From: Clostridia bacterium
Lineage (GTDB): Bacteria > Bacillota > Clostridia > Oscillospirales > CAG-272
Direction of reading: 5' to 3'
NCBI GenBank assembly: GCA_017415805.1
Contig: JAFQEC010000004.1
Location: 2,843 to 66,842, forward strand
Length of the DNA: 64,000 nt
The notes beneath the pieces were generated by a model that searched no databases, was not told the origin of the DNA, and saw nothing but the letters and a program-made list of their open reading frames with translations. The position numbers and the translations under genes were made by a program. Numbering within the stretch: the first letter of the stretch is position 1; the number at the start of each line of letters is the position of its first letter. This document shows, one piece after another, positions 7,687-51,932 of the stretch.

Positions 7687-7714
7687 ATCCTTACCCACTT
7701 TCTGCTTTTTTGTC

Positions 7715-7817: not shown

Positions 7818-7846
7818 TTGACAAGCGCAAGGGCGCGTGGTAAAAT
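7818..7846 (+). promoter_or_regulatory. Promoter of the Mn-riboswitch/mntP transcript
   Basis: TTGACA (7818-7823), 17 nt, TAAAAT (7841-7846), with TGg upstream (extended -10). Confidence 0.75.
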
Positions 7847-7851
7847 ATAGA

Positions 7852-7974
7852 TGCTCTTCGAGGGAGTAGCAAGCGCACGGTGTGCGTTGCAAGTCAACAT
7901 ACTGACCGAGTACGGTCTGGCTTGCCTTAAATTGCGAGACTCAAATGTGGCGTGGTGCCATATTTGGGTTTTTT
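7852..7974 (+). promoter_or_regulatory. yybP-ykoY (manganese) riboswitch with terminator expression platform
   Basis: Conserved blocks GAGGGAGUAGC, GUCAACAUAC and UUGCGAGAC are present. A 10-bp terminator stem (CAAATGTGGC/GCCATATTTG) and T-run at 7942-7974 overlap the aptamer 3' strand. mntP lies downstream. Confidence 0.85.
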
Positions 7975-8008
7975 CTTTTGCAACAAATACAAAAGGAGAA
8001 CGACCGAG

Positions 8009-37353: not shown

Positions 37354-38474
37354 GATTGGGATACGGGCACGGCACTACCAGACGGATCAAGAAGCTCGAG
37401 ATGCCGTTTGACCATACACTCAATGGTATAGGAACGGATGGTTTCCAGTGCCGCGTGGCTCATGCCTGCCAGCTGCGCGGGAGACGCAAACGCGCGCGTG
37501 ATGGCGTCGCCGAGCGCGGTGCTGTCCGCGGGCGGTACCAAAAAGCCGTTTTCGCCCTCGCGCACCAGCTCCAGCCCTGCAATACAGCGCGTGGTCGTCA
37601 CAACGGGGAGCGCCGCGGCCATCGCCTCGTTGACCACGAGGCCCCAAATATCCTCGCGCGTGGGAAGCACAAACAGATCCGCCGCACGGTAATACCGTTG
37701 CAGCGCATCCTTTGCGCAAAAGCCGACAAAATGTACGTTGGTCAGCGCGTGCTTCTCTACAAACGCCGTGTACTCCTCGGTCGGTGTGCCACCGACAAAA
37801 TAAAAGCCGATGTCACGCGGCAATCCGCGTGCCGCATCTAGCAAGACGTCAAAGCCCTTGCGCGGAATAAACTGACCGACCGCAAGGACGATCCGCTTTT
37901 CCTTGATATTCAACATCTCACGCAAAGCGGCCTTCCCCTCGGGCGTGACGGGCGCATCCGCCACGTCGGACGCAAACAGCGAGGTAAAGGGATAGCGGTG
38001 AATGCGCGCGGGATCTGCGCCGTAGGTAAGATAATAGCGGTCGTGCTCATCGGCGGTGGAAAAATAGCCCTTTGCCCCCGCGATGATCCATCTTTTGATG
38101 CGCGCCTTTATGCCCTTGGAGCTTCCCGCAAAGCCGCCGTCACTTTCCAAGTAATAGGGGATGCGATGCCGCTTCATATAAGAGACAGCAAGCATGCCCG
38201 TGGGCGTTGTGAAATCGGAGCAGATGATGCGATCAAAGGAGCGATCCTTGACGTAGCGCAGCACCCCGGGGCAAATTGCCATATCCGTGCTTGTGGAAGG
38301 CCCCTTCAAAAAAACGCCGTTAAAACGCCGAAATTCGTCGCCCTTCCACTCCTTATTCCTCTCTCTGGAGCGCTCCTTCTCAAACAGCACCGTAAGCTCA
38401 CAGTGCTTGCCCAGCTCATTGAAGAAGTGCACGCGGTAGGGCGAGGGAATGTTTGTCAAAAACAGAATTTTCAT
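37350..38474 (-). CDS. Family-4 glycosyltransferase (GT-B)
   Basis: 374 aa. The C-terminal half has PTREDIWGLVVNEAMAAALPVVTT (EX7E-type motif). Confidence 0.75.
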   Translation of the reverse strand: MKILFLTNIPSPYRVHFFNELGKHCELTVLFEKERSRERNKEWKGDEFRRFNGVFLKGPSTSTDMAICPGVLRYVKDRSFDRIICSDFTTPTGMLAVSYMKRHRIPYYLESDGGFAGSSKGIKARIKRWIIAGAKGYFSTADEHDRYYLTYGADPARIHRYPFTSLFASDVADAPVTPEGKAALREMLNIKEKRIVLAVGQFIPRKGFDVLLDAARGLPRDIGFYFVGGTPTEEYTAFVEKHALTNVHFVGFCAKDALQRYYRAADLFVLPTREDIWGLVVNEAMAAALPVVTTTRCIAGLELVREGENGFLVPPADSTALGDAITRAFASPAQLAGMSHAALETIRSYTIECMVKRHLELLDPSGSAVPVSQS

Positions 38475-39661
38475 ATCCGACTCACCTCGCGGTACAGGTC
38501 AATATACGCCGCAAAGCGTTTGTTCTTATTCCACTCCTCGTGCGCCTGTACGGTGTGCGGCTCGGTGCTTTGCAAAATATGTGCCACGGTTTCGATATCC
38601 CCCTTCTCGACCACGGTGCCCGAGTCGGGGTCCAGCGTCTCGGGACTGCCGCCCGTGCGATACGTGATCACAGGTGTACCGCAGGCCTGCGCCTCAAGAT
38701 TGACCATGGACAATGTTTCCTGATACGTCGGATTTACAAACCAATCCGCCGCCGTGTAAATTTCGGCAAGCGCGCGTACGCTATCTGTACGCGTGATGCC
38801 GAGGATGTTGGGGGGCAACGCCGCCCTTTGTTCCTCTGTCAGGCCCACCAGCACAATTTGGAATCGGTCATCCAGCATGGCGGAAAGGCGCACGAAATCA
38901 TCGAGTCCCTTGTATTTTTGCCACGCACTCGCAACACCGAGCACCACTTTCTTATTCTCAATGCCGTGTCGCGCACGAAAATCACTCTCACACGGTTGAA
39001 AGGCGGACAGGTCAATACCGTTTGGGATCACACGTATCGGTGTCTTGGCAAAAAAAGACTGTGCGGCCAGATCCGCAAGCCAGCGCGAGGGTGTGACCAG
39101 TATCAGATTTTCAAGCGATGCAAACAGCCCGCGCTTGTGCACAAGATTACGAGCGGAGCGATCGAGGAAAAGCGACTTGGGATATCCCCGTTTTTGCGGA
39201 CACCCGCTGCACGCCTGTGCGCGCCATTTCTCACACCCCACCATATCGAAATGTGAGCAGTGTCCCGTAAAGCTCCAGCAATCGTGCAGTGTCCAGATCA
39301 CGGGCTTGCCTGATTCGCGCAAATAGTCAAACAAGACCTTGATGTTGATGTAATAGCCGTGGATGTTATGCAGATGGATCACGTCGGGGTCGTACGCCTG
39401 CACCCACCGGATAAATTTCTTGGTGGCGTGTCCGCTGCCAAGGCCCGCGGAATCAAACAGACGTGCGCGAAGTGCATGCCGCTTCACATCCCGATCGTTC
39501 CCGATGCGCACCGCATATTTTTGATGCTGCGCGAGCACATGCTCGCGACCGTATGCGATCTTGCACTCGTGCCCCGCACGCTCCAGCAGCTCGGCAAGAT
39601 CGGTGCAGATCCTGCCCGTGCTGCGAATGCCGCAAACCGAGTTGATCTGTAAAACCCTCAT
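38471..39661 (-). CDS. Family-4 glycosyltransferase (GT-B), first gene of the locus
   Basis: 396 aa from MRVLQINSVCG. NPTYQETLSMVNLEAQACGTPVI is a GT-B motif. Confidence 0.7.
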   Translation of the reverse strand: MRVLQINSVCGIRSTGRICTDLAELLERAGHECKIAYGREHVLAQHQKYAVRIGNDRDVKRHALRARLFDSAGLGSGHATKKFIRWVQAYDPDVIHLHNIHGYYINIKVLFDYLRESGKPVIWTLHDCWSFTGHCSHFDMVGCEKWRAQACSGCPQKRGYPKSLFLDRSARNLVHKRGLFASLENLILVTPSRWLADLAAQSFFAKTPIRVIPNGIDLSAFQPCESDFRARHGIENKKVVLGVASAWQKYKGLDDFVRLSAMLDDRFQIVLVGLTEEQRAALPPNILGITRTDSVRALAEIYTAADWFVNPTYQETLSMVNLEAQACGTPVITYRTGGSPETLDPDSGTVVEKGDIETVAHILQSTEPHTVQAHEEWNKNKRFAAYIDLYREVSRI

Positions 39662-39786
39662 AGCTTCGTCTCCCATTCCGTTTGAAACATGCCCAAATTC
39701 CTCTGCCTCACTTGCGCGCCGCACCTGTCCTTTATCGCATCCGTGCAGTGAGTGGAGAAGTGCTTAAACTCAAAATATCTTTATAT

Positions 39787-39815
39787 ATTATATCACGCGC
39801 GTGCGCTTATGTCAA
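39787..39815 (-). promoter_or_regulatory. Promoter of the polysaccharide operon
   Basis: On the minus strand: TTGACA, 17 nt, TATAAT, with a TGa extension. It lies about 120 nt upstream of the first GT gene. Confidence 0.6.
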
Positions 39816-40100
39816 CTGCAAGAAACGATAATATTAAGGGGGTGAGATCGCCAAGGCTCCGCAAAACGCGGTTCACAAGAACCAAGCCCACGCGCTGTGC
39901 AGGGGCTTGGTTCTCGCATTTCCAATTCTTTTTCTACATTTTCCAACTTTTGATATTTCTCGTTCTATTTTCAATTCTCTCTCTTTCTCGTTTTTGTTCT
40001 GCTCTCCCCCTCTTTTTTCGACCTTCCCCGTTTTGAGAAAGAGAAACGCCATCACAGCAACACTCTAACGGCTTACTTGTTCGCACTTTGCTATGGCAAA

Positions 40101-40252
40101 GAGAGAGGACGGCTACGCCTATTCGCCACGCCAAGTCCTGCGGACTTGCTATGAAGATGCGTTTGGTGCCCACGGGGCTCCATTCGCTTCGCGAACCGCG
40201 CATCTTCCCCTCGCCGCCACTTTGTGGCTGCGCGGTTTCTCTGTACCCTCTC
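40101..40252. repeat. Structured tandem repeat, unit 1
   Basis: Near-identical to 40297-40448 (196-bp offset) outside a 17-nt patch at 40161-40177. Internal hairpins are CAAGTCC/GGACTTG, GAAGATGCG/CGCATCTTC, TTCGC/GCGAA and GCCAC/GTGGC. Confidence 0.85.
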
Positions 40253-40290
40253 CGCCATAGCAAAAGGGCACCCGATTGGGTGCCCTTTTC
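40253..40290. terminator. Terminator-like hairpin between the repeat units
   Basis: AAAAGGGCACCC-GATT-GGGTGCCCTTTT hairpin. Confidence 0.6.
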
Positions 40291-40296
40291 TTGTGA

Positions 40297-40448
40297 GAGA
40301 GAGGACGGCTACGCCTATTCGCCACGCCAAGTCCTGCGGACTTGCTCTGAAGATGCTCTTGTCGCCAAAGCGGCTCCATTCGCTTTGCGAACCGCGCATC
40401 TTCCCCTCGCCGCCACTTTGTGGCTGCGCGGTTTCTCTGTACCCTCTC
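40297..40448. repeat. Structured tandem repeat, unit 2
   Basis: Copy of 40101-40252. The variable patch lies at 40357-40373. Confidence 0.85.
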
Positions 40449-40491
40449 TTTGCCATAGCAAAAGGGCACCCGTTTGGGTGCCCTTTTGCTA
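40449..40491 (-). terminator. tRNA-Ser terminator (20-bp perfect hairpin)
   Basis: GCCATAGCAAAAGGGCACCC-GTTT-GGGTGCCCTTTTGCTATGGC hairpin directly after the tRNA CCA end. Confidence 0.75.
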
Positions 40492-40583
40492 TGGCGGAGA
40501 GAGAGGGATTCGAACCCTCGTTGGGGTATTAGCCCAAACACGATTTCCAGTCGTGCGCCTTAGACCAGCTCAGCCATCTCTCC
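40492..40583 (-). tRNA. tRNA-Ser (anticodon GGA)
   Basis: 92 nt. Acceptor stem GGAGAGA/TCTCTCC, anticodon loop CUGGAAA, long variable arm, GGTTCGAATCC T-arm, and an encoded CCA. Confidence 0.9.
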
Positions 40584-40599
40584 TTGCTGTGACTTATAT

Positions 40600-40628
40600 A
40601 TCATACCAAAAAACACGCAAAATGTCAA
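40600..40628 (-). promoter_or_regulatory. tRNA-Ser promoter
   Basis: On the minus strand: TTGACA, 17 nt, TATGAT (TGg extended). It lies about 10 nt before the tRNA 5' end. Confidence 0.7.
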
Positions 40629-40678
40629 GAGCAAACGGGAAAGTTTTTTGACATTTTTTGTGCAACGTCAAAAGAAGG

Positions 40679-40707
40679 AAAAGAGCGCCGCGAACGGCGC
40701 TCTTTTT
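40679..40707 (-). terminator. Terminator after rpmA
   Basis: AAAAGAGCGCCG-CGAA-CGGCGCTCTTTT hairpin. Confidence 0.85.
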
Positions 40708-40712
40708 CAAAA

Positions 40713-40991
40713 TCAGTCGGCGTAAACGCTGACCTGCTTCTTGTCCTTGGTCTTCTGCTCAAAGCGGACCTTGCCCGCGATCAGAGCGAACAGGGTGTCA
40801 TCCTTGCCGATGCCGACGTTGTTGCCGGGGTGGATGGCGGTACCGCGCTGGCGAACGATGATGCTGCCTGCCGTAACGGTCTCGCCGTCGGCTGCCTTCA
40901 CGCCAAGACGCTTGGACTCACTATCACGACCGTTCTTGGTCGAACCAACGCCCTTCTTGTGGGCGAAGAACTGCAAGCTAATTCTTAACAT
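40713..40991 (-). CDS. rpmA: 50S ribosomal protein L27 (with cleavable N-terminal extension)
   Basis: [24 protein letters not shown] shows the Firmicute pro-sequence before the AHKK motif. Confidence 0.95.
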
Positions 40992-41024
40992 TGTGCGTTT
41001 CCTCCTTCAAAAATAGGGTGAACC

Positions 41025-41402
41025 TCAAAAATCACGATCCTCGACCTTGATCTTGAAGCCGCTGTCCTTGGTAAACTCGTACATGTCGTCGTGCAGAAGC
41101 ATATCCTCAAGCATCCGGTAGTAGGTGAGGAACAGCCCCGATACGGCGAAGCGTACGCGCTCGTCCGCCTCGTAGGCGGGCAATGCCGAGCGGGAACGGA
41201 CGGTGATCACCGTGTCGTCCTCGTTGATGTCATAGCGGACCTCGCCGCCGTAGACCTCCTCGATGGCATCGACAATGTACATGGTGATCGACGAGAGCAT
41301 GGCACAAAACGGGTCGTTGCCGTATTCGGCGTACGCCACGTGGCCACTCTCCTCAAAGCCGTAAAAGATTCCGTCGCTTCGGAAAAATGTGATGGTCGTC
41401 AT
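41025..41402 (-). CDS. prp: Ribosomal-processing cysteine protease Prp
   Basis: 125 aa between rplU and rpmA, with the SGHVAYAEYGNDPFCAMLSS His/Cys dyad pattern. Confidence 0.75.
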   Translation of the reverse strand: MTTITFFRSDGIFYGFEESGHVAYAEYGNDPFCAMLSSITMYIVDAIEEVYGGEVRYDINEDDTVITVRSRSALPAYEADERVRFAVSGLFLTYYRMLEDMLLHDDMYEFTKDSGFKIKVEDRDF

Positions 41403-41410
41403 AGGGACGA

Positions 41411-41722
41411 TCAGCCCTCGATAGCCGTGATCTGCACCTTGGTGTAGGGCTGACGGTGACCGAGCTTCTTCTTCTCGTTCTTCTTTGCCTTGTACTTGAA
41501 GACCGTGATCTTCTTTGCCTTGCCCTGCTTGACAACGGTTGCGGTAACCTTTGCGCCTTCCACATCGGGCGTGCCGATCTTCAGTGCGCCGTCACGGGAC
41601 AGAGCCTTGACCGCGGTGAACTCCACGGTTGCGTTCTCCTCAACGTCGAGCTTTTCCACAAAAATGATGTCGCCCTCGTTGACCTTGTACTGCTTTCCGC
41701 CGGTTTCAATAATTGCGTACAC
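41411..41722 (-). CDS. rplU: 50S ribosomal protein L21
   Basis: GTG 41722 ([14 protein letters not shown]) lies 8 nt after an AGAGAGG RBS. The longer GTG 41731 start would leave no room for an RBS. Confidence 0.9.
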
Positions 41723-41805
41723 GAAAAGCACCTCTCTTTCTTCATAGACTCGCTGATTTCAGGCGGTATCCAAAGGATACACTTGTGGGCCTTTTTCATG
41801 CGGCA
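41723..41805 (-). promoter_or_regulatory. Possible L21 ribosomal-protein leader
   Basis: An ~80-nt 5' UTR between the promoter and rplU with a GTATCC-TTTG-GATAC hairpin. The call rests on position only. Confidence 0.3.
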
Positions 41806-41809
41806 AATT

Positions 41810-41839
41810 ATTATAGCACAGAAAGCACGCAAATGTCAA
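41810..41839 (-). promoter_or_regulatory. rplU operon promoter (inside the 3' end of vanZ)
   Basis: On the minus strand: TTGACA, 18 nt, TATAAT, with a TGc extension. Confidence 0.7.
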
Positions 41840-42318
41840 GGGTTTTTTTCATTTATTTCCGATTTTTTTCGCTCCTTGCGCGCACACAGCGCGTAAAACA
41901 GCAGCAGCGCACCGCAAAAGAACACAATTCCCGCAAGACCGCCTGCGGTGTCCAGCAAAACATCAAGAAACGACGGGCCGCGATCGGGCGAGAGGAGCTG
42001 CAAAAGCTCATCCACACAGCCCACCGCAAAGACCGCCAAAAGTGCCCACGGAGCGAAATGGCGAAACTCAAAGGAAACAAGCGTGAGCGCGGCAAGAACG
42101 CCCAGCACTGCAAACTCACAAAAATGCGCCATTTTTCGCACCGTTTCGTGCTCAAATCGCGTTTCGCTGCCCGCCGATGCTAAAAATCCATTGAGGGTCT
42201 CGACCACGCCGCCGCTGGTCTGGGCAGACTCCGTGCCCGAGGCCAGTGAGAAATGCCAGATAAAGCCGCACCACAAAACCGTGGCCGCCAGCAGCACCCA
42301 TGGCAACACGCGCCGCAT
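41836..42318 (-). CDS. VanZ-family membrane protein
   Basis: 160 aa with VRKMAHFCEFAVLG, DELLQL and DVLLDTAG motifs. Confidence 0.75.
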   Translation of the reverse strand: MRRVLPWVLLAATVLWCGFIWHFSLASGTESAQTSGGVVETLNGFLASAGSETRFEHETVRKMAHFCEFAVLGVLAALTLVSFEFRHFAPWALLAVFAVGCVDELLQLLSPDRGPSFLDVLLDTAGGLAGIVFFCGALLLFYALCARKERKKSEINEKNP

Positions 42319-42499
42319 TTGCTCCGCCTCCTTTCAAAAAGCTCTTGCTTTTCCCACAAAAGTATGCTATACTAATGAGGTATTTGATGCGCACATACGC
42401 AATCCCCCACATTCTTTTCTATGCCAAGATAGCATAAAAGATTTGCCAAATTGTGAACGCGCGCACAAAAGTCAACGCTCCGCACCGACAATTGCATAC

Positions 42500-42574
42500 G
42501 CCTGCATAGTTAAATGGATATAACAACCCCCTCCTAAGGGGTAGTTACAGGTTCGATTCCTGTTGCGGGTGCCA
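42500..42574 (+). tRNA. tRNA-Arg (anticodon CCT)
   Basis: 75 nt. D-arm GTTA/TAAC, anticodon stem ACCCC/GGGGT with loop CTCCTAA, T-arm ACAGG-TTCGATT-CCTGT, and an encoded CCA. The acceptor stem has two G-U pairs (1-72 and 4-69). Confidence 0.75.
42531..42574 (+). repeat. Direct repeat, left copy (attL-like; 3' part of tRNA-Arg)
   Basis: CTCCTAAGGGGTAGTTACAGGTTCGATTCCTGTTGCGGGTGCCA. It matches 44891-44934 at 42 of 44 positions. Confidence 0.85.
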
Positions 42575-42605
42575 CAGGGCAGTCAATTAGGGCTGCCCTT
42601 TTTAA
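42575..42605 (+). terminator. tRNA-Arg terminator
   Basis: AGGGCAG...CTGCCCT hairpin followed by TTTTT. Confidence 0.7.
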
Positions 42606-42716
42606 TTTGCATCACCATTTATATCTGAAAAAATTAAATTGTCCACCTTTTGTCACCCTACATTTAACAAAATATGTGCTATAATTAAATTACAATCTCA
42701 TAGAAAGGAGAATTTT

Positions 42717-42905
42717 ATGTTGAACCAAGAAGAAAAAAAGTATCAGGATTTTATCAATAAATTCAAACGCTCTTTGGCGGAATTGGAAAGAGATTTTGCT
42801 GAATTGTCCGAAATCAATAAACCAAGAGCTGCAACAGAACTTGTTGAGTTTGTTGGAAAGCAAACTGTATTGAAAATGGCAATGTCGGCAATAAGTGGCA
42901 GATAA
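42717..42905 (+). CDS. Hypothetical small helical protein (62 aa)
   Basis: ATG 42717 follows an AAAGGAGAA RBS. An extended -10 (TGcTATAAT) lies upstream. The protein is charged and coiled-coil-like, with no recognisable motif. Confidence 0.45.
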   Translation: MLNQEEKKYQDFINKFKRSLAELERDFAELSEINKPRAATELVEFVGKQTVLKMAMSAISGR

Positions 42906-42917
42906 TACAGCTTCCCG

Positions 42918-42946
42918 TTGACAAATTCTCAAACATATGGTACAAT
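42918..42946 (+). promoter_or_regulatory. Strong promoter inside the islet
   Basis: TTGACA (42918-42923), 17 nt, TACAAT (42941-42946), with a TGg extension. Confidence 0.75.
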
Positions 42947-42952
42947 AATTGC

Positions 42953-43111
42953 GCTACACAAATCGAATACCTTTAGTCCAGAGTGGGTATTTTTATCTAT
43001 GGTAAAAATGCATACTCCCTTTTCTGCGTGCTCTGGCTAGTGGTAAAGATTTGTGTAGCAACAATTGGAGATGCGTTTTTCGTGCGTCTCTGATTGGGGC
43101 GCACTTTTTTT
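42953..43111 (+). ncRNA. Unassigned structured leader: 107-nt rod closed by a 12-bp helix, plus alternative antiterminator/terminator hairpins
   Basis: GCTACACAAATC (42953-42964) pairs with GATTTGTGTAGC (43048-43059), with inner CCAGAG/CTCTGG pairing. Hairpin 43068-43090 and terminator 43082-43104 (followed by T7) share nt 43083-43090. Confidence 0.5.
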
Positions 43112-43135
43112 ATTTTACTTTTGGAGGATTTAAAA

Positions 43136-43915
43136 ATGGCATTTCAAAGATACGATGGATTTGTAGGGAGCGCACCACAAAAGAAAATGGATAACGGCCT
43201 TCCCAAGTGTCCTTTCTGTGGAGAACACCCACACTGGTTATTGGATTTACAATCGGGCTTTACGGCAACAATGACGTGTATGTGTGAAAAATGCGGTGGA
43301 AAATTATACTCGGAAAATCACGGATTTTCTTTTGATGATAACATGCGAATTGTAGATGTTGGCACCAAAAATCTAAATAATCTCCCATTAAATTCCGTAT
43401 ATCACATTAAATCATTGAACACGATAGCACAAAATACTTTTTACAATGGTGGACAACAGTCCAATCCCTCGACCGGTGGATTTGAAGCGACATCACACAC
43501 TACATATACACCATCATATACGGAACAGAAATCTAAAAATAACAAAACTGCTGTTGCAGTCATTTCTGTAATATCGATCATATTGTTTATTGGTATAATG
43601 GCTTGGATTTTATTGCCCGGTGGCGGAGGTAATAAGATAGATGTTGTTGTAAATTCCTCTTCTATGCAAGTCGAAGAATTGTTTGGAACTTACACAGCAA
43701 CGGTTACGGGTAAAATCACTAATAACTCGTCAAGCACACTAGATTACGTGCAGATTACAATTTCCTTGTATGATAGTGCAGGTAATGTCGTAGGTACGGC
43801 AATTGATAATCAGTTGAATTTAGGTGCAGGAGAAACTTGGAATTTCTCTGCTATGGGTATGAGTTCTACTACACGACCAGTTTCTTGCAAAGTCACAGAT
43901 GTAACATATTATTGA
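43136..43915 (+). CDS. Membrane protein: N-terminal zinc ribbon, one TM helix, C-terminal FxLYD domain
   Basis: ATG 43136 lies 8 nt after GGAGG. Zinc ribbon CPFC...CEKC, TM helix AVAVISVISIILFIGIMAWILL, and VTGKITNNSSSTLDYVQITISLYDSAGNVVG...GETWNF, which fits the FxLYD pattern. Confidence 0.7.
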   Translation: MAFQRYDGFVGSAPQKKMDNGLPKCPFCGEHPHWLLDLQSGFTATMTCMCEKCGGKLYSENHGFSFDDNMRIVDVGTKNLNNLPLNSVYHIKSLNTIAQNTFYNGGQQSNPSTGGFEATSHTTYTPSYTEQKSKNNKTAVAVISVISIILFIGIMAWILLPGGGGNKIDVVVNSSSMQVEELFGTYTATVTGKITNNSSSTLDYVQITISLYDSAGNVVGTAIDNQLNLGAGETWNFSAMGMSSTTRPVSCKVTDVTYY

Positions 43916-43950
43916 TTTCGTAAGGTGGGTATCCCACTTACGAAACTTTC
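43916..43950 (+). terminator. Terminator after the FxLYD gene
   Basis: A 14-bp perfect stem (TTTCGTAAGGTGGG-TAT-CCCACTTACGAAA). The T-run is weak. Confidence 0.6.
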
Positions 43951-44108
43951 GGAGAGGGCGAAAAATTGACGCGTGACGGCAAATTGATCCCTCTCCTTAT
44001 CCTGTTTCCTAAAATGATAAATTCAATGACTTGTGTACCTGTATAAATACATTGATTAATTGACAATTTTATGATATAATTATCAAAATAAAATTGAGAG
44101 AGTAAATA

Positions 44109-44726
44109 ATGATAGGAATAAAATTATTCAAAGAACAAGAATATGCCGAACAGTTTATGAAAGGGCAAATTTATATAAGCGCTGCTGGGCGTTTTTCAAA
44201 AGCTACAGATGCACAACGGCGTTATACCGAAGGAATGATTCCAATTTTTGATAAACCATTGGTTATAGATGGGCAGGTTTTTAATGTGCCTTATTCCTTT
44301 AGTTATCTTGAACTTGATCGAGTTCCCGTGTTTTGTTTTACAATTTTAGACGAAAGAAATAGCACTATTGTTGATAAAACTCTTAATCACGATATTCCAA
44401 AAGGCAATCACGAGTTAGGAAAACATCTTGTGCTATTTGATGTAGATGAATTTTACAGAATACTATCTCAAAAAGTAACCGCTTGTGGTTGTGGCATTAT
44501 TGGCAAAAAGGTTAAATACTTTGATTTTAATAATTTAAAAGACAATTCGTGGCATAATGAAATAAAAACTCCGTATGACTGTTTGTTTTTACACGATATT
44601 AAGCATAAAAATCAAAATGAATTTAGATTTGTATTAACTGAAAAAATATTTGATCCGGGATTTGAGAGTACAATTGTTGATGTAGGCGAGTGGGATAAAA
44701 AACCTCAATATATGGAAATAGAGTAA
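44109..44726 (+). CDS. Hypothetical cytoplasmic protein (205 aa), no recognisable family
   Basis: An ORF in AT-rich DNA with an RBS-like GAGAGAG 8 nt upstream and a TTGATT-17-TATAAT promoter. No motif was recognised by eye. Confidence 0.5.
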   Translation: MIGIKLFKEQEYAEQFMKGQIYISAAGRFSKATDAQRRYTEGMIPIFDKPLVIDGQVFNVPYSFSYLELDRVPVFCFTILDERNSTIVDKTLNHDIPKGNHELGKHLVLFDVDEFYRILSQKVTACGCGIIGKKVKYFDFNNLKDNSWHNEIKTPYDCLFLHDIKHKNQNEFRFVLTEKIFDPGFESTIVDVGEWDKKPQYMEIE

Positions 44727-44802
44727 CTGGTTTTCGTACACCTATTGTACACCCGCACACTACAAACCGCCGCAAAAACCACCAACAACTACACAACCTA
44801 CC

Positions 44803-44845
44803 GAGCGTAAAATCTGCGTTTTTCGTGGATTTTACGCTCATTTTG
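44803..44845 (+). terminator. Terminator-like hairpin at the right end of the islet
   Basis: GAGCGTAAAATC-TGCGTTTTTCGTG-GATTTTACGCTC, followed by ATTTTG. Confidence 0.6.
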
Positions 44846-44890
44846 AAAGAAAATCCCCAAAGCGCAGATATAAACGAACATTTATGAAAA

Positions 44891-44934
44891 CTCCTAAGGG
44901 GTAGTTACAGGTTCGATTCCCGTTGGGGGTGCCA
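44891..44934 (+). repeat. Direct repeat, right copy (attR-like tRNA-Arg 3' fragment)
   Basis: CTCCTAAGGGGTAGTTACAGGTTCGATTCCCGTTGGGGGTGCCA. No tRNA 5' half lies upstream of it. Confidence 0.85.
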
Positions 44935-44974
44935 AAAAAACCGAGCTTGGTTGCAAAACCAAGCTCGGTTTTTC
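44935..44974. terminator. Bidirectional terminator
   Basis: CCGAGCTTGGTT-GCAA-AACCAAGCTCGG hairpin flanked by A7 and T5. Confidence 0.8.
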
Positions 44975-44978
44975 TGAT

Positions 44979-45230
44979 TTAATCCAACTCAAGATCCTCG
45001 CGTCTGAAAATATCGTCGTTCATAAATTCTTCGACTGTCATGTTGAAGCCGCGCGCGAGTCTGAATATTGTTGTGAAGGAGACCGTATTGTTTTTGCCTT
45101 GCAATATCCGATCCATGGCGCCGTGAAAAATTCCGGAGTCTTGCTCCAAACGATATTGTGTCATGCCTTTGCTGTGCAACAATTGAATAATTCTTATAGC
45201 AACTGCATCATTTATCGTCAAATTTTCCAC
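44979..45230 (-). CDS. XRE-family HTH regulator
   Basis: 83 aa. IRIIQLLHSKGMTQYRLEQDSGIFHGAMDRILQGKNN is an HTH_3-like sequence. Confidence 0.7.
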   Translation of the reverse strand: MENLTINDAVAIRIIQLLHSKGMTQYRLEQDSGIFHGAMDRILQGKNNTVSFTTIFRLARGFNMTVEEFMNDDIFRREDLELD

Positions 45231-45348
45231 CTCCTGCCTTTGTAAATGCGTATATATTTTATCATTTTTCCAAAAGCAATATACGCCTTCACAAAGGCGT
45301 AATGGTGTGGTATAATATGAGACGAATATATGCGAAAAGAGGTCGACA

Positions 45349-45777
45349 ATGACGATTGTGAAATATATAGTGGTCGGAATTTTGCTATTTGCCGCAATAT
45401 TCTCTTTCGTGTTTTTTCTGACAGATAAAACCGAGCACTACACGGTCGATAGCTATGTGCAAGAGCCTCTGGTGTATATTACCGATCACGGCGAATGTTA
45501 CCACGCTTGGAATTGCCACTATCTGGAGCGATCAAAAAACGCGAACGGCTTGTACGATGCTCGTTCAAAAGGATATCGCGCTTGTTCCTATTGTGATGGG
45601 GCCCCTCACGGAACAATCGAGGTTCCGTACAAGAAAACAGAGGCACAAGACGTTACATGCAAGGTTGTGATCCAAGCCATCATTTTTGCATCTGTTGGCA
45701 CCCTTCTGTATGCAACGGGATGTGTAACAATCCACTTTTACAGAAAAAGCAACACAAAAAAGGAACGGCAGATATAA
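45349..45777 (+). CDS. Membrane-anchored protein with a CYH-x3-C ... C-x2-C zinc-binding motif
   Basis: 142 aa with N- and C-terminal TM helices. The central sequence is HGECYHAWNCHYL...GYRACSYCDG. The promoter is TTCACA-17-TATAAT with a TG extension. Confidence 0.55.
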   Translation: MTIVKYIVVGILLFAAIFSFVFFLTDKTEHYTVDSYVQEPLVYITDHGECYHAWNCHYLERSKNANGLYDARSKGYRACSYCDGAPHGTIEVPYKKTEAQDVTCKVVIQAIIFASVGTLLYATGCVTIHFYRKSNTKKERQI

Positions 45778-45817
45778 TCGTCTGCTGTTCCTTTTGTATT
45801 TCATTTATACGTTTCCT

Positions 45818-46345
45818 TCACTTCACCAGATACCGCCAGGGGCGGTCGCGGTCCTCGGGGGCGGCGTAGTCGATGCCGACGCGCGGTAGGGCGACATAAT
45901 GGGGCACAGGGGTGCCGTCATCCTCCAGCCAGATGCCGCCCTGCTCGGTAAGCGGTGCGCCGTTATCGGCGCAGGTGATGGCCAGCGCGCGCGTGACGCG
46001 CCCGGGGCCGCTTGCGCCCTCCACGCCGCGGATGAGCACCGCCTCGGGATGCCCCTCGTCGCCCGTGACGACGTTGAGCAGGGCGTGGATGCCGTAGCAG
46101 AGGTAGACGTAGGCAATACCCCCTTGACGGTATAAGATCTCGGTACGTTTCGTCCTTCCCTTATGCGCGTGAGAGGCGGTGTCCTCCTCGCCGAAATAGC
46201 ACTCGGTCTCGGTGATGCGGCGGCGCAGCACGGTGCCGTCGGGCAGGCGGCGGCAGAGCCATTTACCAAGCAAAAGGGGCGCCAGAATAGTGGCAGGGCG
46301 ACTGAACCACGCAGAGTCCAATCGCCCGATCTGTTTTTGTGTCAT
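45818..46345 (-). CDS. mpg: DNA-3-methyladenine glycosylase (Mpg/AAG family)
   Basis: Start at MTQKQIG (ATGA overlap with asnA). ITETECYFGEEDTASHA and YVYLCYGIHALLNVV motifs are present. Confidence 0.8.
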   Translation of the reverse strand: MTQKQIGRLDSAWFSRPATILAPLLLGKWLCRRLPDGTVLRRRITETECYFGEEDTASHAHKGRTKRTEILYRQGGIAYVYLCYGIHALLNVVTGDEGHPEAVLIRGVEGASGPGRVTRALAITCADNGAPLTEQGGIWLEDDGTPVPHYVALPRVGIDYAAPEDRDRPWRYLVK

Positions 46346-47349
46346 AGCAAAACGATGCCGTTTTCGGCGCAAACGCGGCGCGTTTCGTCGTCCCAGAGCG
46401 ACACCTGCACCTCGCCGATGTGCGCCTTACCAAGCAGGAGCATGGAAAGGCGGGACTGGCCGATGCCGCCGCCCATGGTGAGGGGCAGCTCGCCTGCGAG
46501 CAGTGCGCGGTGGAAGGGCAGATCGCGCCGATCCTCCGCACCTGCCGCCTTGAGCTGTGCCGCAAGCGAGCGTTCGTCCACGCGAATACCCATTGACGAG
46601 ATCTCCACGGCGCAGTCAAGCGTGTCATCCCAGAACAGAATGTCGCCGTTAAGCGACCAATCGTCGTAGTCGGGGGCGCGGCCGTCGTGGGGCTTGCCCG
46701 AGCGCAGCTTGCCGCCGATCTGCATAATAAATACCGTCTTTTTCTCCTTGGTGATCAGGTTCTCGCGCTCCTTGCCCGTCTTATCGGGGTAGAGGTCCTC
46801 GAGCTCCTGCGAGGTGATAAAGGTGACCTCGCGCTCCAGCTCGACGTTCAGCTGCGGATAGCGGCATTTGAGCACGTCCAGCGTTTCGCAGATCGCGCCC
46901 ACGATGCACTTCACCACGGTTTTGAGATAGTCGATATTGCGCGTTTTGGTGGTGATGATCTTCTCCCAGTCCCACTGATCGGTATAGATCGAGTGCAGGT
47001 TATCCATCTCCTCGTCGCGGCGGATGGCGTTCATATCAGTATAAAGCCCCTCGCCCGCCGAAAAGCCGTAGGCGCGCAGTGCCATGCGCTTCCACTTGGC
47101 AAGCGAGTGCACGATCACGGCGGTCTGCCCGTTCTCCTTGATGTCAAACGCGACGGGTCGCTCGTAGCCGTTCAGGTCATCGTTCATGCCCGTGGTGGGA
47201 TCGACGAACAAGGGCGCGGACACGCGGCGCAAATTCAGCGCCAGGCACAGCTTTTCCTCAAACGTGCGCTTGAGCATGCCGATGGCGGTCTGCGTGTCGT
47301 AAATACCCAATACCGAGCGATACCCTTCGGGCACTGTGATCTTACTCAT
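46342..47349 (-). CDS. asnA: Aspartate-ammonia ligase
   Basis: 335 aa beginning MSKITVPEGYRSVLGIYDTQTAIGMLKRTFE. GGGIGQSRL motif present. Confidence 0.9.
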   Translation of the reverse strand: MSKITVPEGYRSVLGIYDTQTAIGMLKRTFEEKLCLALNLRRVSAPLFVDPTTGMNDDLNGYERPVAFDIKENGQTAVIVHSLAKWKRMALRAYGFSAGEGLYTDMNAIRRDEEMDNLHSIYTDQWDWEKIITTKTRNIDYLKTVVKCIVGAICETLDVLKCRYPQLNVELEREVTFITSQELEDLYPDKTGKERENLITKEKKTVFIMQIGGKLRSGKPHDGRAPDYDDWSLNGDILFWDDTLDCAVEISSMGIRVDERSLAAQLKAAGAEDRRDLPFHRALLAGELPLTMGGGIGQSRLSMLLLGKAHIGEVQVSLWDDETRRVCAENGIVLL

Positions 47350-47369
47350 AAAAAACTCCTTACAGCTTG

Positions 47370-48746
47370 TTAAATGCTGCCCACACTGCGGGGGAACAGC
47401 AGAGTATCACGGATGTTTTGCACGCCCGTGAGGTACATCACGATGCGGTCAAGGCCCAGACCAAAGCCGCTGTGCGGCACACTGCCGAACTTGCGCGTGT
47501 CGAGATACTCGCGGTAGGACTCCAGCGCCATGCCGCGCGCGTTCATTGCGTCCAGCAGCTTATCCATATCCCACTCGCGCTCGCTGCAGCCGATGATCTC
47601 ACCGATGCCGGGCACGAGCAGGTCGGTTGCGGCAACGGTCTTGCCGTCGTCGTTCTGCTTCATATAGAAGGACTTGATCTCCTTGGGGTAATCCACCACG
47701 AACAGCGGCTTTTTAAAATACTCGTCGGTGAGATACTTCTCGTGCTCGGTCTGGAGATCGCAGCCCCACTCCACGGGGTATTTGAACTCCTTGCCCGATT
47801 TTTGCAGGATCTCCACCGCCTCGGTATAGGTGACGCGGCCGAAATCGCTGTTGAGCACGTGGTTGAGCTTATCCTTGAGTCCCTTCTCCACCCACTGATC
47901 GAAGAAATCCATTTCCTCGGGGCAGTTCTCCAGCACGTCGCGGATGATCGACTTGATGAAGTCCTCGGCGATCTCGATGATGTCGTCGATCTCGGCAAAG
48001 GCGACCTCGGGCTCAACGTGCCAGAACTCCGAGAGGTGACGGGTGGTGTTGCTGTGCTCGGCGCGGAACGAGGGCCCGAAGGTATAGATCTTGCCAAGAC
48101 CCATAGCGGCCATCTCGCCCTCAAGCTGTGCCGACACGCTCAGTCCCACGCGCTTGCCGAAGAAATCGGCGGCGTTGTACTCCTCCTCGCTCTTGTGCTC
48201 GGTGCTCCACGGATGCGTGGTCACACGGAACATCTCGCCCGCACCCTCGCAATCGCTTGCGGTGATAATGGGCGCATGGACATACTTATAGCCGTTGCTC
48301 TGGAAATAATTGTGGATGGCGAAGGAGAGGCGGTCGCGCACGGCGAAAACCGACTCAAAATAGCGGGTTCTGGCGCGCAGGTGCGGAATGGTGCGCAGGA
48401 ACTCAAGCGTGTGGCGCTTCTTTTGCAGAGGATAATCGCCGGGGCAGGAGCCGAACACCGTGAGCTCGCGCACGTTGACCTCACAGCCGTTGCGCTCGGA
48501 TGCGATCAGCTCACCCTTGACCATGAGCGACGCGCCCACGACCATCACGTCGCCAAGCTGTGCGTCGCTGAACTTCTCACGGTCGAACACCAGCTGCAGA
48601 TTGCGCAGGCAGGTGCCGTCATTGAGCTCGATAAACGCCACGCTCTTGGAATCGCGCGCGGTACGCACCCAGCCACAGACCGTGACATCGGTGCCCACAT
48701 ACGCCGCGGTGTTGGCAAACAGCTTTTTTACATCAATGTGCTTCAT
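47370..48746 (-). CDS. asnS: Asparaginyl-tRNA synthetase
   Basis: 458 aa with class II motifs FRAEHSNTTRHLSEFWHVEPE and GFGLGLDR, plus an N-terminal OB fold (VCGWVRTARDSK). Confidence 0.9.
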   Translation of the reverse strand: MKHIDVKKLFANTAAYVGTDVTVCGWVRTARDSKSVAFIELNDGTCLRNLQLVFDREKFSDAQLGDVMVVGASLMVKGELIASERNGCEVNVRELTVFGSCPGDYPLQKKRHTLEFLRTIPHLRARTRYFESVFAVRDRLSFAIHNYFQSNGYKYVHAPIITASDCEGAGEMFRVTTHPWSTEHKSEEEYNAADFFGKRVGLSVSAQLEGEMAAMGLGKIYTFGPSFRAEHSNTTRHLSEFWHVEPEVAFAEIDDIIEIAEDFIKSIIRDVLENCPEEMDFFDQWVEKGLKDKLNHVLNSDFGRVTYTEAVEILQKSGKEFKYPVEWGCDLQTEHEKYLTDEYFKKPLFVVDYPKEIKSFYMKQNDDGKTVAATDLLVPGIGEIIGCSEREWDMDKLLDAMNARGMALESYREYLDTRKFGSVPHSGFGLGLDRIVMYLTGVQNIRDTLLFPRSVGSI

Positions 48747-48842
48747 AGCGTCCTCCGAAATGCCCGAAATGGCAAATTAAGTCATATATAGATAAGTATA
48801 ACACTATTTTAAGGAAAAATCAATATGTTTTACAGGAAAATT

Positions 48843-48870
48843 AAGGCCTCGCGGCGTGCCGCGAGGCCCT
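48843..48870 (-). terminator. Terminator after pflA
   Basis: AAGGCCTCGCGG-CGTG-CCGCGAGGCCTT hairpin. Confidence 0.75.
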
Positions 48871-48872
48871 TT

Positions 48873-49580
48873 TCAATATTTCAGCTTTTTTTGCAGCTCT
48901 GCCATTTGCTCGGCCGTGGGTGTTTCGTAACGGTCAAAGGGAAATTCCAACCCCATATTGTCGTATTTCACGCGGCAGATCTTGCGAAAGGGCAAGAGCT
49001 CCACGCCGTCCACCACCGAATGTGCGGCGGCAAGGGCGTTCAGCATTTCCACGCTCTGTGCGGTATCGTTGAGCGAGGGGATTGTGACCTGACGCAGCGT
49101 GGTGGGGATCCCCTTTGCTTGCAGCTCGTCCAGGAACGCCAAGGGGGGCTCGATACCACAGCCCACGAAGGCGCGGTACTGCGCATCGGTGGGGTATTTG
49201 ATGTCCAGCAAAACGCGGTCGGTCACGGCAAGCAACGCGCGCACGCGCCCGTCCAACAAGCTGCCCGAGGTGTCAAGGCAGGTGTGGATGCCGCGCGCGT
49301 GGCACTCCTCGAACAGTGCGCGCACGAAATCCGATTGCAGCAGCGGCTCACCGCCCGAGACCGTGATGCCACCGTCCTTGCCGAAATACGTGCGGTAGCG
49401 CGCGGCGGTCTCGGCCAGCTCCGCGGCGGTCATTTCCCTGCCGCCCTCGCACGCCCACGTATCGGGATTGTGACAGCATCCGCAGCGCAGGTTACAGCCC
49501 TGCACGAACACAACGAAACGGACACCCGGCCCGTCGAGCGTGCCGAGTGTCTGAATCGAATGAATGCGTCCCTTCATCAC
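48873..49580 (-). CDS. pflA: Pyruvate formate-lyase activating enzyme
   Basis: 235 aa with [27 protein letters not shown] and VSGGEP motifs. Confidence 0.9.
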
Positions 49581-51808
49581 ATGCTCTCGTGGAAGGTACG
49601 GCTGATGACCTCACGCTGCTGCTCGCGCGAGAGCTTGTTGAAGTTCACGGCGTAGCCCGAAACGCGAATGGTCAGGTTCGGGTAGGCATCGGGGTCCTCG
49701 TACGCCTTCATCAGCGTCTCACGGGAGAGCACGTTGATGTTGATGTGGTGCGCCATCTTGGCAAAATAGCCGTCCAGAATGGTCACCAGATTGCCGACGC
49801 GCTCGGCGTCGGTTCTGCCCAGTGCCGCGGGCGTGATCGAGAAGGTGTTGGAAACGCCGTCACGGCAGTCGTCATAGTCGATCTTGGCCACCGAGTTGAG
49901 CGACGCGAGCGCACCGTTCTCCTCACGGTTGTGCATGGGGTTGGCACCGGGGGCGAAGGGCTCGCCCGCCTTGCGGCCGTCGGGAGTGTTGTTGGTGTGC
50001 TTGCCGTACATCACGTTCGAGGTGATGGTCAGCACCGAGAGGGTATGCTCGGCGTTGCGGTAGGTGGGTGTCTTGCGAAGCTCGGTGATCACCTTGTGCG
50101 TGAGCTCCTTGGCGATGCTGTCCACGCGGTCGTCGTCGTTGCCGAACTTGGGGAAATCGCCCACGGTCTTGAAATCCACGATATAGCCGTTCTCGTCCTT
50201 GATGGGCGACACGCTTGCGTGCTTGATGGCGCTGAGCGAATCGGTCACGACCGAAAGGCCCGCCACGCCAAAGGCCATAAAGCGATGCACGTCGGTATCG
50301 TGCAGAGCCATTTGCGTCTTCTCGTAGGCATATTTATCGTGCATATAGTGAATGACGTTCATGGTATTCACGTACAGGCGGGAGAGCCACTGCAAATAAA
50401 TGTCGTAGCGCTCCATCACCGCCGCAAAATCCAGCTTATCTCCCGCCAGCACGTCCATCTGCGGGCCGATCTTCATGCCGCTGGTGGTGTCATAGCCGCC
50501 GTTGATGGCGATGAGCAGCAGCTTGGCGAGGTTACAGCGCGCGCCGAAGAACTGCATTTGCTTGCCGATGCGCATCGCGGAGACGCAGCAGGCGATCGCA
50601 TAGTCGTCGCCGTAGCGCGGGCGCATCAGATCGTCGTTTTCATACTGGATGGAGTCGGTATCCACCGAGACCTTGGCACAGTATTTCTTGAAGCCCTCGG
50701 GCAGCTCGGTCGACCAGAGCACCGTGAGGTTGGGCTCGGGCGACGAGCCAAGCGTGTAGAGCGTGTTGAGGATACGGAAGCTGCTCTTGGTGACCAGCGT
50801 GCGGCCGTCCTCACCCATACCGCCCACGGCCTCGGTGATCCACATGGGGTCGCCGCCGAAGAGCTCGTTATAGTCGGGGGTGCGCAGATGGCGCGCCATA
50901 CGCAGCTTCATCACGAAATCGTCGATCAGCTCCTGCGCCTCGCTCTCGGTCAGCGTGCCGTTTGCAAGATCGCGCTCGATATAAATGTCGAAGAAGGTCG
51001 AGACACGGCCCAGCGAGTTTGCCGCGCCATTCTGCTCCTTAATGGCGGCAAGGTATGCGAAATAGGTCCACTGGATCGCCTCGCGTGCGTTTGCGGCGGG
51101 GCCGCTGATGTCGTAGCCGTACATGGCCGCCATTTCCTTGAGGAAGCCGAGGAACGAGATCTGACGGTGCAGCTCCTCGTCCAAACGGATCACGTCGACG
51201 TCAAAATCGCGCGTTGCCAGTGCTTGCTTGTCCTTCTTTTTTTCCTCGATCAGGTGATCCACGCCGTACAGCGCCACGCGGCGGTAGTCGCCGATGATAC
51301 GGCCGCGGCCATAGCCGTCGGGCAGGCCCGTGATCACGTGGCACTTGCGCGCCAAACGCATCTCGTCGGTATAGGCGCGGAATACGCCGTCGTTGTGGGT
51401 GGTGCGGTAGCAAAAGCCCTCCTCGACCGCGTTGCCGAGCTTATAGCCGTAGGCCTCGCAGGCAGCGCGTGCCATGCGGATACCGCCGAAGGGGTTGACG
51501 CCGCGCTTGAGCGGGCGGTTGGTCTGCAGACCCACGATCAGCTCCTTGTCCTTGTCCAGATAACCGGGGGCGTAGGCCGTGAGCGAGGAGACCGTGTTGG
51601 TGTCAATATCCAGCACGCCGCCGTACTGACGCTCCAGCGTGAAGAGCGATTGCAGCTTTTTCATGAGCTCCGCGGTGCGCTCGGTTGCGCCCGCAAGGAA
51701 GTTCGCGCCGCCCGTATAGGGGCGATAGTTTTGTTGAATAAAATCGCGGACGTCGATGGCGCTCTGCCATACGCCGGCCTTGAAGCCATGCCAATTCTTG
51801 TGTTCCAT
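49577..51808 (-). CDS. pflB: Pyruvate formate-lyase (formate C-acetyltransferase)
   Basis: 743 aa with the catalytic IACCVSA and the glycyl-radical motif [11 protein letters not shown]. Confidence 0.95.
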
Positions 51809-51932
51809 AATCTTCTCCTTCTCGCCGGGCCCAGACGGTCGGCCTTATGCGCTTATTATTTTTACATTCCCCTGCGGTGCTCCGCTCAGCCACACGGATG
51901 TATGGCGGGCCGTCAGTCATGTAACTATTATC

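Follow-up and report, generated by a model that had tools for sequence, protein, structure and literature searches.

An integrase-less islet at a tRNA-Arg(CCT) gene of an uncultured gut Clostridia bacterium, probably mobilised in trans

Introduction

How does a short piece of DNA without any recombinase gene come to lie between an intact tRNA gene and a second copy of that gene's 3′ half? The question is raised by a 64-kb stretch of the genome of an uncultured gut Clostridia bacterium (the window, to which all coordinates refer unless another locus is named), in which 2,360 bp separate the 3′ half of a tRNA-Arg(CCT) gene from its duplicate. This interval is probably a horizontally acquired, non-autonomous integrative islet which was inserted by a tyrosine recombinase at the anticodon loop of tRNA-Arg(CCT) and mobilised in trans. 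The insertion is polymorphic, it belongs to a family of elements with the same target site, and it lacks an integrase. From a comparison of sequences, the recombinase that mobilises it would be of the type encoded beside a related islet in another genome, contig L011.

The tRNA-Arg(CCT) site

The intact tRNA-Arg(CCT) gene on the attL (left attachment) side of the islet (42500-42574, + strand) was found by ARAGORN and by Rfam (63.9 bits). Its 44 nt from the anticodon loop to the CCA end (42531-42574, +) recur as attR, a displaced tRNA 3′ half, at 44891-44934 (+); according to a repeat search the copies are in direct orientation and identical at 42 of 44 positions. By a rough estimate of our own, which is not the output of a tool, a 44-mer with at most two mismatches would occur about 1e-18 times by chance in 64 kb, and no further copy was found on either strand of the window even at 64% identity. 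No tRNA 5′ half was found upstream of the second copy by ARAGORN, Rfam or a comparison of tRNA halves. The original prediction, made from the sequence alone, had described the repeat and the missing 5′ half, and the repeat search, ARAGORN and Rfam bear out both.

The same holds for the predicted collapse of G+C between the copies. It is 0.356 within the islet (42575-44890) as opposed to 0.537 at 38000-42499 and 0.60 in the core genes at 45801-50000, that is, 0.54-0.60 in the flanks, and the line 43381-43440 does contain 18 G+C in 60 positions. The three open reading frames (ORFs) of 62, 259 and 205 amino acids (aa) are present as predicted, and searches with Pfam, PHROGs and PADLOC found no integrase, excisionase or transposase among them.

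An empty site in a sister lineage

A sister lineage, represented by contigs L031 and L032, was found by a protein search with the flanking VanZ (89% aa identity). In the orientation of the window its gene order is rpmA, prp, rplU, VanZ, tRNA-Arg, XRE, an ORF5 homologue, MPG glycosylase, asnA and asnS, and the islet is absent from this locus. The flanks are 95.6-96.1% identical to the window at the nucleotide level. The window blocks 40479-42574 and 44891-48871 overlap on L031 by exactly 44 nt, which makes the islet a precise 2,360-bp insertion. The empty tRNA-Arg site that the original prediction had proposed to seek in close relatives is therefore present in L031 and L032, and the relatives are polymorphic for the islet. 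The same 2.4 kb in all relatives, which the prediction had named as speaking against it, is thus not what they show.

The terminators differ accordingly. The tRNA of L031 runs directly into the hairpin AAAAAAGCCGAGCTTGG, which in the window lies 3′ of the second copy instead; at both sites the XRE gene comes next. This bidirectional host terminator (44933-44976, recognised as an inverted repeat) is the original terminator of the tRNA and the first host DNA past the islet. The tRNA transcript is now ended by a hairpin borne by the islet, AGGGCAGTCAATTAGGGCTGCCCT followed by a T run (42576-42599, +; terminator scan), which is likewise found 3′ of the att (attachment-site) copy or tRNA at the left islet end in L011 and L019.

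All stem pairs of the window tRNA are standard, two G-U pairs in the acceptor stem included. The original prediction had taken these G-U pairs as a trace of a 3′ strand replaced by element-borne sequence. The pairs are real, but they do not point to a replaced strand: the tRNA of the empty site is identical to that of the window at 75 of 75 positions, which makes both pairs native.

Tandem duplication is frequent among tRNA genes, and the second copy extends to the CCA end, so that the interval might be native low-G+C DNA between a tRNA-Arg gene and the remnant of its tandem duplicate. Such an origin has practically no chance of being correct. The sister lineage has one tRNA and lacks precisely the interval, which refutes a tandem duplication; the second copy has no 5′ half and is preceded by an element arm conserved in other species; and the composition of the interval is foreign. 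What the original prediction had listed as a potential second, degraded tRNA gene is an att junction, made up of conserved arm, core and tRNA 3′ half.

The islet family in other genomes

Related loci were collected by context look-ups and by one scan each of genome and metagenome collections; they lie in metagenome-assembled genomes (MAGs) of uncultured Clostridia/Eubacteriales. Islets are located at tRNA-Arg in L018, L019, L020 and L039, and that of L011 lies between two att copies. The islet DNA of these loci is 78-99% identical, and the core flanks of the window have no blastn match in L018-L030. The search for the same islet at other loci, which the original prediction had suggested, thus led to tRNA-Arg genes of unrelated Clostridia MAGs. 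The compact layout of tRNA or att copy, cargo and conserved arm recurs in at least five further genomes, with elements of 2.4-3.2 kb. No integrase was found inside any islet of the family, and no relaxase, coupling protein, replication gene or integrase remnant was found in six islets.

L019 matches the window at 91-99% identity over about 1 kb (42600-43600), after which identity drops to about 60% inside the C-terminal domain of ORF2. This pattern, with its drop at about 43600, is a recombination mosaic and a sign of recent exchange. In L019 and L039 further cargo, namely Fic genes and a second leader RNA, is located past the att copy.

These data bear on the question whether the islet is a living element or the dead remnant of some larger island or prophage with an integrase, which would have lost this gene and other functions by deletion in place and been inherited vertically as an immobile relic. 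A decay route of this type is described in the review that defines cis-mobilizable elements (PMC5704250); the islet has neither an integrase nor left-arm motifs, its attR copy bears two disabling substitutions, and every metagenomic contig with an identical VanZ or ORF3 shows the same context. On the other hand, at least five further genomes share the compact layout without an integrase and without conjugation, replication or phage remnants, and independent decay to the same 2.4-3.2-kb form is unlikely. Moreover, the 1 kb at 91-99% identity to L019 stands between host flanks that cannot be aligned, which suggests transfer after the compact form arose. We therefore regard decay in place as unlikely.

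Right arm, crossover and split tRNAs

The right end of the islet is formed by an arm (P arm; 44731-44890, +) that is conserved across loci despite different adjacent cargo. It measures about 160-190 bp and shows 72-85% identity in L011, L018, L019, L038 and L039. In the family, TTGTACACCC is located about 140 bp (136-146 bp) from the core, together with an inverted repeat AGCGTAAAATC...GATTTTACGCT and an end in which ...TATGAAAA meets CTCCTAAGGG. The window has the motif CGTACACCTA-TTGTACACCC at 44735-44754 (TTGTACACCC at 44745-44754), the inverted repeat GAGCGTAAAATC...GATTTTACGCTC at 44803-44839, and an end ...TTATGAAAA that adjoins the core. The right junction, at which the conserved arm gives way to CTCCTAAG, falls at the same nucleotide in six loci. 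As a side observation, the loop of the inverted repeat in the window, TGCGTTTTTCGTG (44815-44827), is identical to the linker motif TGCGTTTTTCGTGCG (43069-43083) of the leader RNA discussed below; this may be a coincidence, since the arm loop differs in other islets.

The point of crossover can be read from L018, L019 and L020, in which a tRNA 5′ half ending in the anticodon loop, where ...CTCCTAAG meets T, lies about 180 bp upstream of an intact tRNA (split-tRNA elements at 9398-9652 and 12128-12171 in L018, at 9188-9441 and 12222-12265 in L019, and at 6739-6993 in L020). When the displaced 5′ half of L018 and L019 is joined to the displaced 3′ half, which lies beyond the opposite end of the islet, a cloverleaf results in which 17 of 17 stem pairs form; joining either displaced half with a half of the internal tRNA gives one to three mismatches. 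This perfect cloverleaf shows that the anticodon loop is where the host tRNA was split. The presumed crossover core in the window, CTCCTAAG at 42531-42538 (+), is placed by these junctions in L018 and L019. As an explanation for the identity of attL with the empty-site tRNA, a crossover at the repeat's 3′ end was considered and rejected, because L018 and L019 place it in the anticodon loop and because the element-borne tRNA of L039 itself matches the 3′ half of the window at all 44 positions.

The elements of L018-L020 carry a complete tRNA-Arg of their own, located behind a left arm of about 136 bp with two TTGTACACCC motifs. The terminator of the element tRNA in L018 resembles that of the native tRNA in L033, a hint at the past capture of a host tRNA. 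In L020 the anticodon of the replacement tRNA is TCT, not CCT. To our knowledge, splitting the host tRNA and bringing a complete replacement gene is an unusual solution to the cost of tRNA integration. The window, the L011 islet and L039 show the classical layout instead, with the 3′ half of the element joined directly to the 5′ half of the host. The element-borne tRNA of L039 matches the window tRNA at 76 of 77 positions and at 44 of 44 over the 3′ half, which explains the native look of attL in the window.

The attR copy of the window has diverged. Combined with the resident 5′ half it gives the mismatches G5.G68 and A51.C63, both of which stem from the two substitutions, and both changes are states found in the second tRNA-Arg(CCT) variant of L019, L020 and L033. 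The flanks have diverged from L031 by roughly 4%, a level with which drift of a relic without function would be compatible; recombination with another tRNA variant may likewise account for the shared states.

Homologous recombination could also be the only way by which the islet spreads, for example after transduction or transformation, with the tRNA and its partial copy serving as homology and no site-specific recombinase involved. The cargo is strongly mosaic, with identity to L019 falling from above 90% to about 60% at about 43600 and the ORF3 cassette lying behind a different gene in L010, and the two attR differences resemble an exchange with the other tRNA variant. Against this stand the right junction fixed at one nucleotide in six loci and the displaced halves of L018 and L019, which meet exactly at the anticodon loop. 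Unalignable hosts share the tRNA sequence alone, and a single tRNA cannot give both crossover points of a replacement; the right arm, in addition, holds a motif common to an integrase-bearing element. Spread by homologous recombination alone is thus very improbable, and site-specific insertion by a tyrosine recombinase is the reading followed here.

The candidate helper integrase

If the islet was inserted by a tyrosine recombinase, the enzyme has to be sought elsewhere. A candidate is the 535-aa tyrosine integrase of L011 (5146-6753; PF00589 1e-20, PF14659 3e-12, phrog_1 2e-64), which marks one end of a larger element that also encodes a DNA methylase and DUF3846. It is followed by an att copy (7395-7438), the islet and a further att copy (10160-10203), so that the gene ends about 640 bp upstream of the att copy at which the islet starts. 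This 640-bp interval contains TTGTACACCC in four direct and two inverted copies, the nearest direct copies lying 127-171 bp from the core, and its core-proximal stretch resembles the islet arm. The shared att core and the shared TTGTACACCC arm motif make the L011-type integrase family the likely mobiliser.

Searches in viral DNA gave little for this family. A scan of IMG/VR with the L011 integrase returned one distant relative only. Two viral contigs that match the paired arm motif look unrelated, with a high G+C by eye, no tRNA and no match to islet proteins or integrase. At least 120 IMG/VR viral contigs (L163-L282) hold the tRNA-Arg(CCT) 3′ half CTCCTAAGGGNTAGTTNNNGGTTCGATTCC, often near the contig end. 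As the 120 contigs that were fetched are without an L011-like integrase, tRNA-Arg(CCT) appears to be a widely used prophage attachment site for other integrase families.

Cargo of the islet and its variable slot

ORF1 (62 aa, 42717-42905, +) recurs in L019 at 100% identity and in L011 at 53% identity over 43 aa; the islets of L018, L020 and L039 lack it. It matches no family in Pfam, PHROGs or NCBIfam, its best hit in PADLOC-DB 2.0 has an E-value of 0.018, and by eye its sequence looks helical.

ORF2 (259 aa, 43136-43915, +) begins with a four-cysteine zinc ribbon (CPFCG...CMCEKC) and ends in an FxLYD domain; in between lie a variable linker and then a single transmembrane helix. The FxLYD domain (residues 187-257) scores 76.6 bits against NCBIfam NF038353, above the curated cutoff of 23, and the protein matches phrog_14275 at 6e-11. 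Its N-terminus stays below the cutoffs of the Lar-type families PF14354 (17.9 vs 28.6 bits) and TIGR03655 (18.8 vs 39.6), with which the zinc ribbon alone is shared. The family comprises 48 homologous clusters, in which N- and C-terminal alleles are shuffled between relatives; no relatives were found in IMG/VR, and no mention of the FxLYD domain was found in the literature searched. The gene is followed by a terminator-like hairpin read from the sequence (TTTCGTAAGGTGGG...CCCACTTACGAAA, 43917-43946, +), and the segment around it (43904-44014) is also present in L019 and L039 at about 78-82% identity.

ORF3 (205 aa, 44109-44726, +) occupies a variable slot beside the right arm. It is preceded by promoter-like sites from a promoter scan (44052-44089, +), and promoter and gene move as a unit, the segment 43996-44742 being 95% identical in L010 behind a different upstream gene. 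Homologues of the protein are very scarce, with no more than three close clusters, and at E <=1e-3 its family, which is found on mobile elements, numbers 42 representatives. The family members are 205-250 aa long and show the motifs K.F..EYA..F..G.IY, P.FC and F.KD..Y..QNE.R; ORF3 matches phrog_26561 (2e-11). An AlphaFold2 model built from 34 sequences reached a pLDDT of 89.8 and a pTM of 0.85. Foldseek searches of the PDB and BFVD with this model gave no significant neighbour (best E 0.64 and 0.1, respectively), and a profile search against PDB sequences gave no match. Distant relatives adjoin serine recombinases and a primase, or an HNH gene. The motif KD..Y..QNE.R presumably resembles one of DUF2971, which we take as a lead only; DUF2971 (PF11185) does not match ORF3, and one of 35 family members matches it (E 0.0099).

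The content of the slot differs between islets. L010 carries the same ORF3 cassette as the window, L011 and L018 a 323-aa protein, L019 a 354-aa protein with a sub-threshold HEPN match, and L039 an M.HaeIII-like methylase (PF00145 3e-103) together with R.HaeIII (PF09556 1e-135). In L020 a distant relative of ORF3 (phrog_26561, 1.4e-16) is located elsewhere in the islet. By eye the 323-aa protein gave a SIR2-like impression, for which neither Pfam nor PADLOC offers support; among PDB sequences it found designed pentatricopeptide-repeat proteins only, with no significant aligned stretch, and the 354-aa protein found no match there. The islet thus carries accessory genes of a kind that is typical of mobile elements. 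Judging by their neighbours, a role of ORF2 and ORF3 in defence or exclusion is plausible, although PADLOC gave no direct match in support of it.

The original prediction had also assigned promoter-like and terminator-like signals of its own to each ORF. Such sites exist, and those resembling terminators are enriched (13 observed against 3.1 expected from shuffles), but the promoter-like sites are not in excess (10 against 11.6). The terminator at 43082-43104 sits in the leader of ORF2 and not at the end of the ORF1 transcript.

A structured leader RNA upstream of ORF2

This leader is a structured RNA (42951-43112, +), identified with RNAalifold and with a covariance model, R1, that scores 139.8 bits in the window. 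It is preceded by a promoter-like site (42918-42946, +; 11/12) consisting of TTGACA, 17 nt and TACAAT with an extended TG, the hexamers of which are conserved in an alignment of 14 loci. A 12-bp helix, P1, closes the structure; it encloses further helices and a hairpin, P3, whose loop UUUGGUAAAAA is conserved. A linker then leads to an intrinsic terminator (43082-43104 and a U tract), which lies about 15 nt before the ribosome-binding site of ORF2. Covariation over P1 and the terminator in 15 sequences is pronounced: 99.3% of cells are paired and 11 of 21 pairs have changed on both sides, values not attained in any of 500 shuffles, and pairing falls to 32-55% when the partners are slid against each other. 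No match above the gathering threshold of Rfam 15 was found for the leader in the window, and at E <=5 the region 42400-46000 gave the tRNA and chance-level hits only.

The 3′ side of P3 is complementary to the linker before the terminator, and variants compensate (UGCAU/AUGCG, GUGUUU/AAACAU, CGCAAA/UUUGCG, UGCAGA/UCUGCG). In the minimum-free-energy fold of the window sequence the linker pairs with the 5′ strand of the terminator instead. These alternative pairings, as modelled, suggest a switch between termination and read-through. The leader is therefore a candidate for a new riboswitch-like attenuator of mobile-element accessory genes. A T-box-like reading of its UGGU loop was left as speculation, and Rfam gives no T-box match.

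Further copies of the leader are located at 13767-13924 in L019, 4671-4826 in L039, 2325-2493 (−) in L088, 1444-1615 (−) in L059, 4250-4419 (−) in L093 and 10499-10644 (+) in L110, and L010 ends in a weak fragment (19 bits, E 0.38). In L019 and L039 the model matches before unrelated small genes as well, and in four IMG/VR viral contigs it scores 87-103 bits before a protein with two transmembrane segments, a 112-aa protein and a lipoprotein. As it stands before unrelated small genes, it looks like a general leader of mobile-element accessory genes that is not specific to ORF2. Independent metagenome assemblies of the strain (contigs L002 and L004-L007) break at 43016-43070, inside the leader RNA. 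The breaks likely come from near-identical leader copies in other elements or strains of the community which confuse the assembler; this explanation was preferred to that of an element boundary, which was not adopted.

A model of islet mobilisation

According to the model that we favour, a tyrosine recombinase would insert family elements of 2.4-3.2 kb at the core CTCCTAAG in gut Clostridia. The left end would supply a tRNA 3′ half and a terminator and thereby keep the tRNA gene intact, and the right end would leave the conserved arm followed by the displaced 3′ half of the host. A larger co-resident element with the same att site and the TTGTACACCC motif would provide the integrase, either in trans or, once the two have accreted in tandem, in cis. 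Cargo would travel as self-contained cassettes, namely ORF1, the FxLYD protein behind its leader RNA, and one exchangeable gene by the right arm, a slot which in relatives holds a restriction-modification system or other candidate defence genes. The proposal of the original prediction, an integrase-less tRNA islet made by recombination of the tyrosine-integrase type, is upheld by the empty site, the family, the tRNA halves, the arm motif beside the L011 integrase and the restriction-modification system of L039.

Several findings weigh against this model. No L011-like integrase was found in the 64-kb window by tblastn with three tyrosine recombinases. An integrase of this type was seen beside an islet once, in an element whose left end lies outside the fetched DNA, and neither the arm motif nor a similar integrase is present in any of the 120 fetched IMG/VR contigs that contain the 3′ half of tRNA-Arg(CCT). 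The window copy lacks the left arm of about 136 bp with its two TTGTACACCC motifs that is present in L018-L020, and the islet may therefore no longer be excisable. The two differences of attR match the other tRNA-Arg variant, for which simple drift offers no obvious explanation, and ORF2 homologues also occur away from any tRNA (L013, L017). As to the function of the cargo, ORF2 and ORF3 have no defence match in PADLOC-DB 2.0, and ORF3 is without a structural neighbour.

A further-reaching interpretation can be put forward only tentatively. The islets may be dedicated minimal integrase-less cassettes, equipped with arms (and in some cases with a spare tRNA-Arg that compensates for the split), which hijack co-resident integrases and exchange single defence or exclusion genes among gut Clostridia, with a membrane protein under the control of an undescribed riboswitch-like RNA class shared with prophage moron genes. 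Integrase-less islands are usually discarded by island finders or dismissed as decay. The compact integrase-less form, the conserved arm and the one-gene slot across species may thus mark a simple and so far overlooked way in which accessory or defence genes travel singly between gut Clostridia, with an integrase borrowed from a neighbour. Two by-products lend themselves to testing, a new structured leader RNA on islets and viral contigs and a modelled ORF3 family without a structural neighbour.

Other features of the window

Low G+C (0.42) runs for about 870 bp past the second repeat copy (44935-45800), over an XRE/HTH_26 gene (44979-45230, −) and ORF5, a 142-aa membrane protein with a Cys/His-rich segment (45349-45777; phrog_14556 C-terminus, 8e-7). 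This stretch lies outside the islet, as it is also present at the empty site of L031. The idea that it belongs to the islet was dropped for that reason and because no degenerate third att copy bounds it. An earlier insertion at this hot spot may have left it behind. ORF5 is called at only 69 aa in L031, by eye owing to a one-base difference in an A run, and a Fic gene fills the equivalent position in L019 and L039.

Only 2 kb away, a tRNA-Ser(GGA) gene (40492-40583, −) constitutes another variable hot spot of integration. It is followed by a 196-bp tandem duplication (40100-40252 and 40296-40448, 94% identical), palindromic terminator-like units and a dip in G+C (39650-40583 region). Homology to the sister lineage stops at 40479, and L031 carries a 283-aa tyrosine integrase and a Rep_1 gene beside its tRNA-Ser (5982-7985). 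Elsewhere, a ZMP/ZTP riboswitch (pfl motif, 51.3 bits; 51822-51930, −) precedes pflB-pflA, an ordinary known arrangement.

Comparison with known systems

Phage satellites of the phage-inducible chromosomal island (PICI) type are, like the islet, small, integrated site-specifically, dependent on a helper and often equipped with defence genes. In contrast to the islet they have their own integrase, replication and helper-interference genes, and none of these matches ORF1-3. The islet is not a phage satellite.

The tycheposons of Prochlorococcus use tRNA genes as hot spots, where successive integrations push older elements inward and leave behind partial tRNAs and cargo-only remnants (bioRxiv 10.1101/2020.12.28.424599). 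L019 and L039, with extra cargo past the att copy, show the same array pattern. However, tycheposons encode their own integrase and often replication modules, whereas the islets encode neither and are found in Clostridia.

Classical islands integrated into tRNA genes, with an anticodon-centred attP, are recognised by the Islander signature, in which one end is bounded by an intact tRNA gene and the other by a fragment of the cognate tRNA in direct orientation (PMC4383910). The islet shares with them the regenerated tRNA, the direct 3′ fragment, the identity from anticodon loop to CCA, the foreign composition and a precise empty site. It differs in having no tyrosine integrase by Pfam, PHROGs and tblastn, and an Islander filter would reject it. 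At 2.36 kb, it is also expected to fall below typical island sizes. The elements of L018-L020 depart further from this scheme, as they bring not just a restored 3′ end but a whole replacement tRNA, which is set apart from the core by the left arm of about 136 bp.

A parallel may also be drawn with cis-mobilizable elements (CIMEs) of the ICESt1/ICESt3 type, which have att sites and no integration or transfer genes (PMC5704250). The islet is likewise flanked by attL and attR and devoid of such genes. In L011, though not in the window itself, the related islet stands in tandem with an integrase-bearing element that shares its att site, an arrangement that would allow mobilisation by accretion. 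As a difference from CIMEs, six islets gave no sign of a conjugative or mobilisable ancestor, an absence that speaks neither for nor against an origin by decay; the islet is also much smaller (2.4 kb), some members of its family carry a complete tRNA, and its mobilisation is putative. Finally, the compact form and an arm of its own are conserved in several species, so the islet has the look of a dedicated hitch-hiker and not that of a one-off product of decay.

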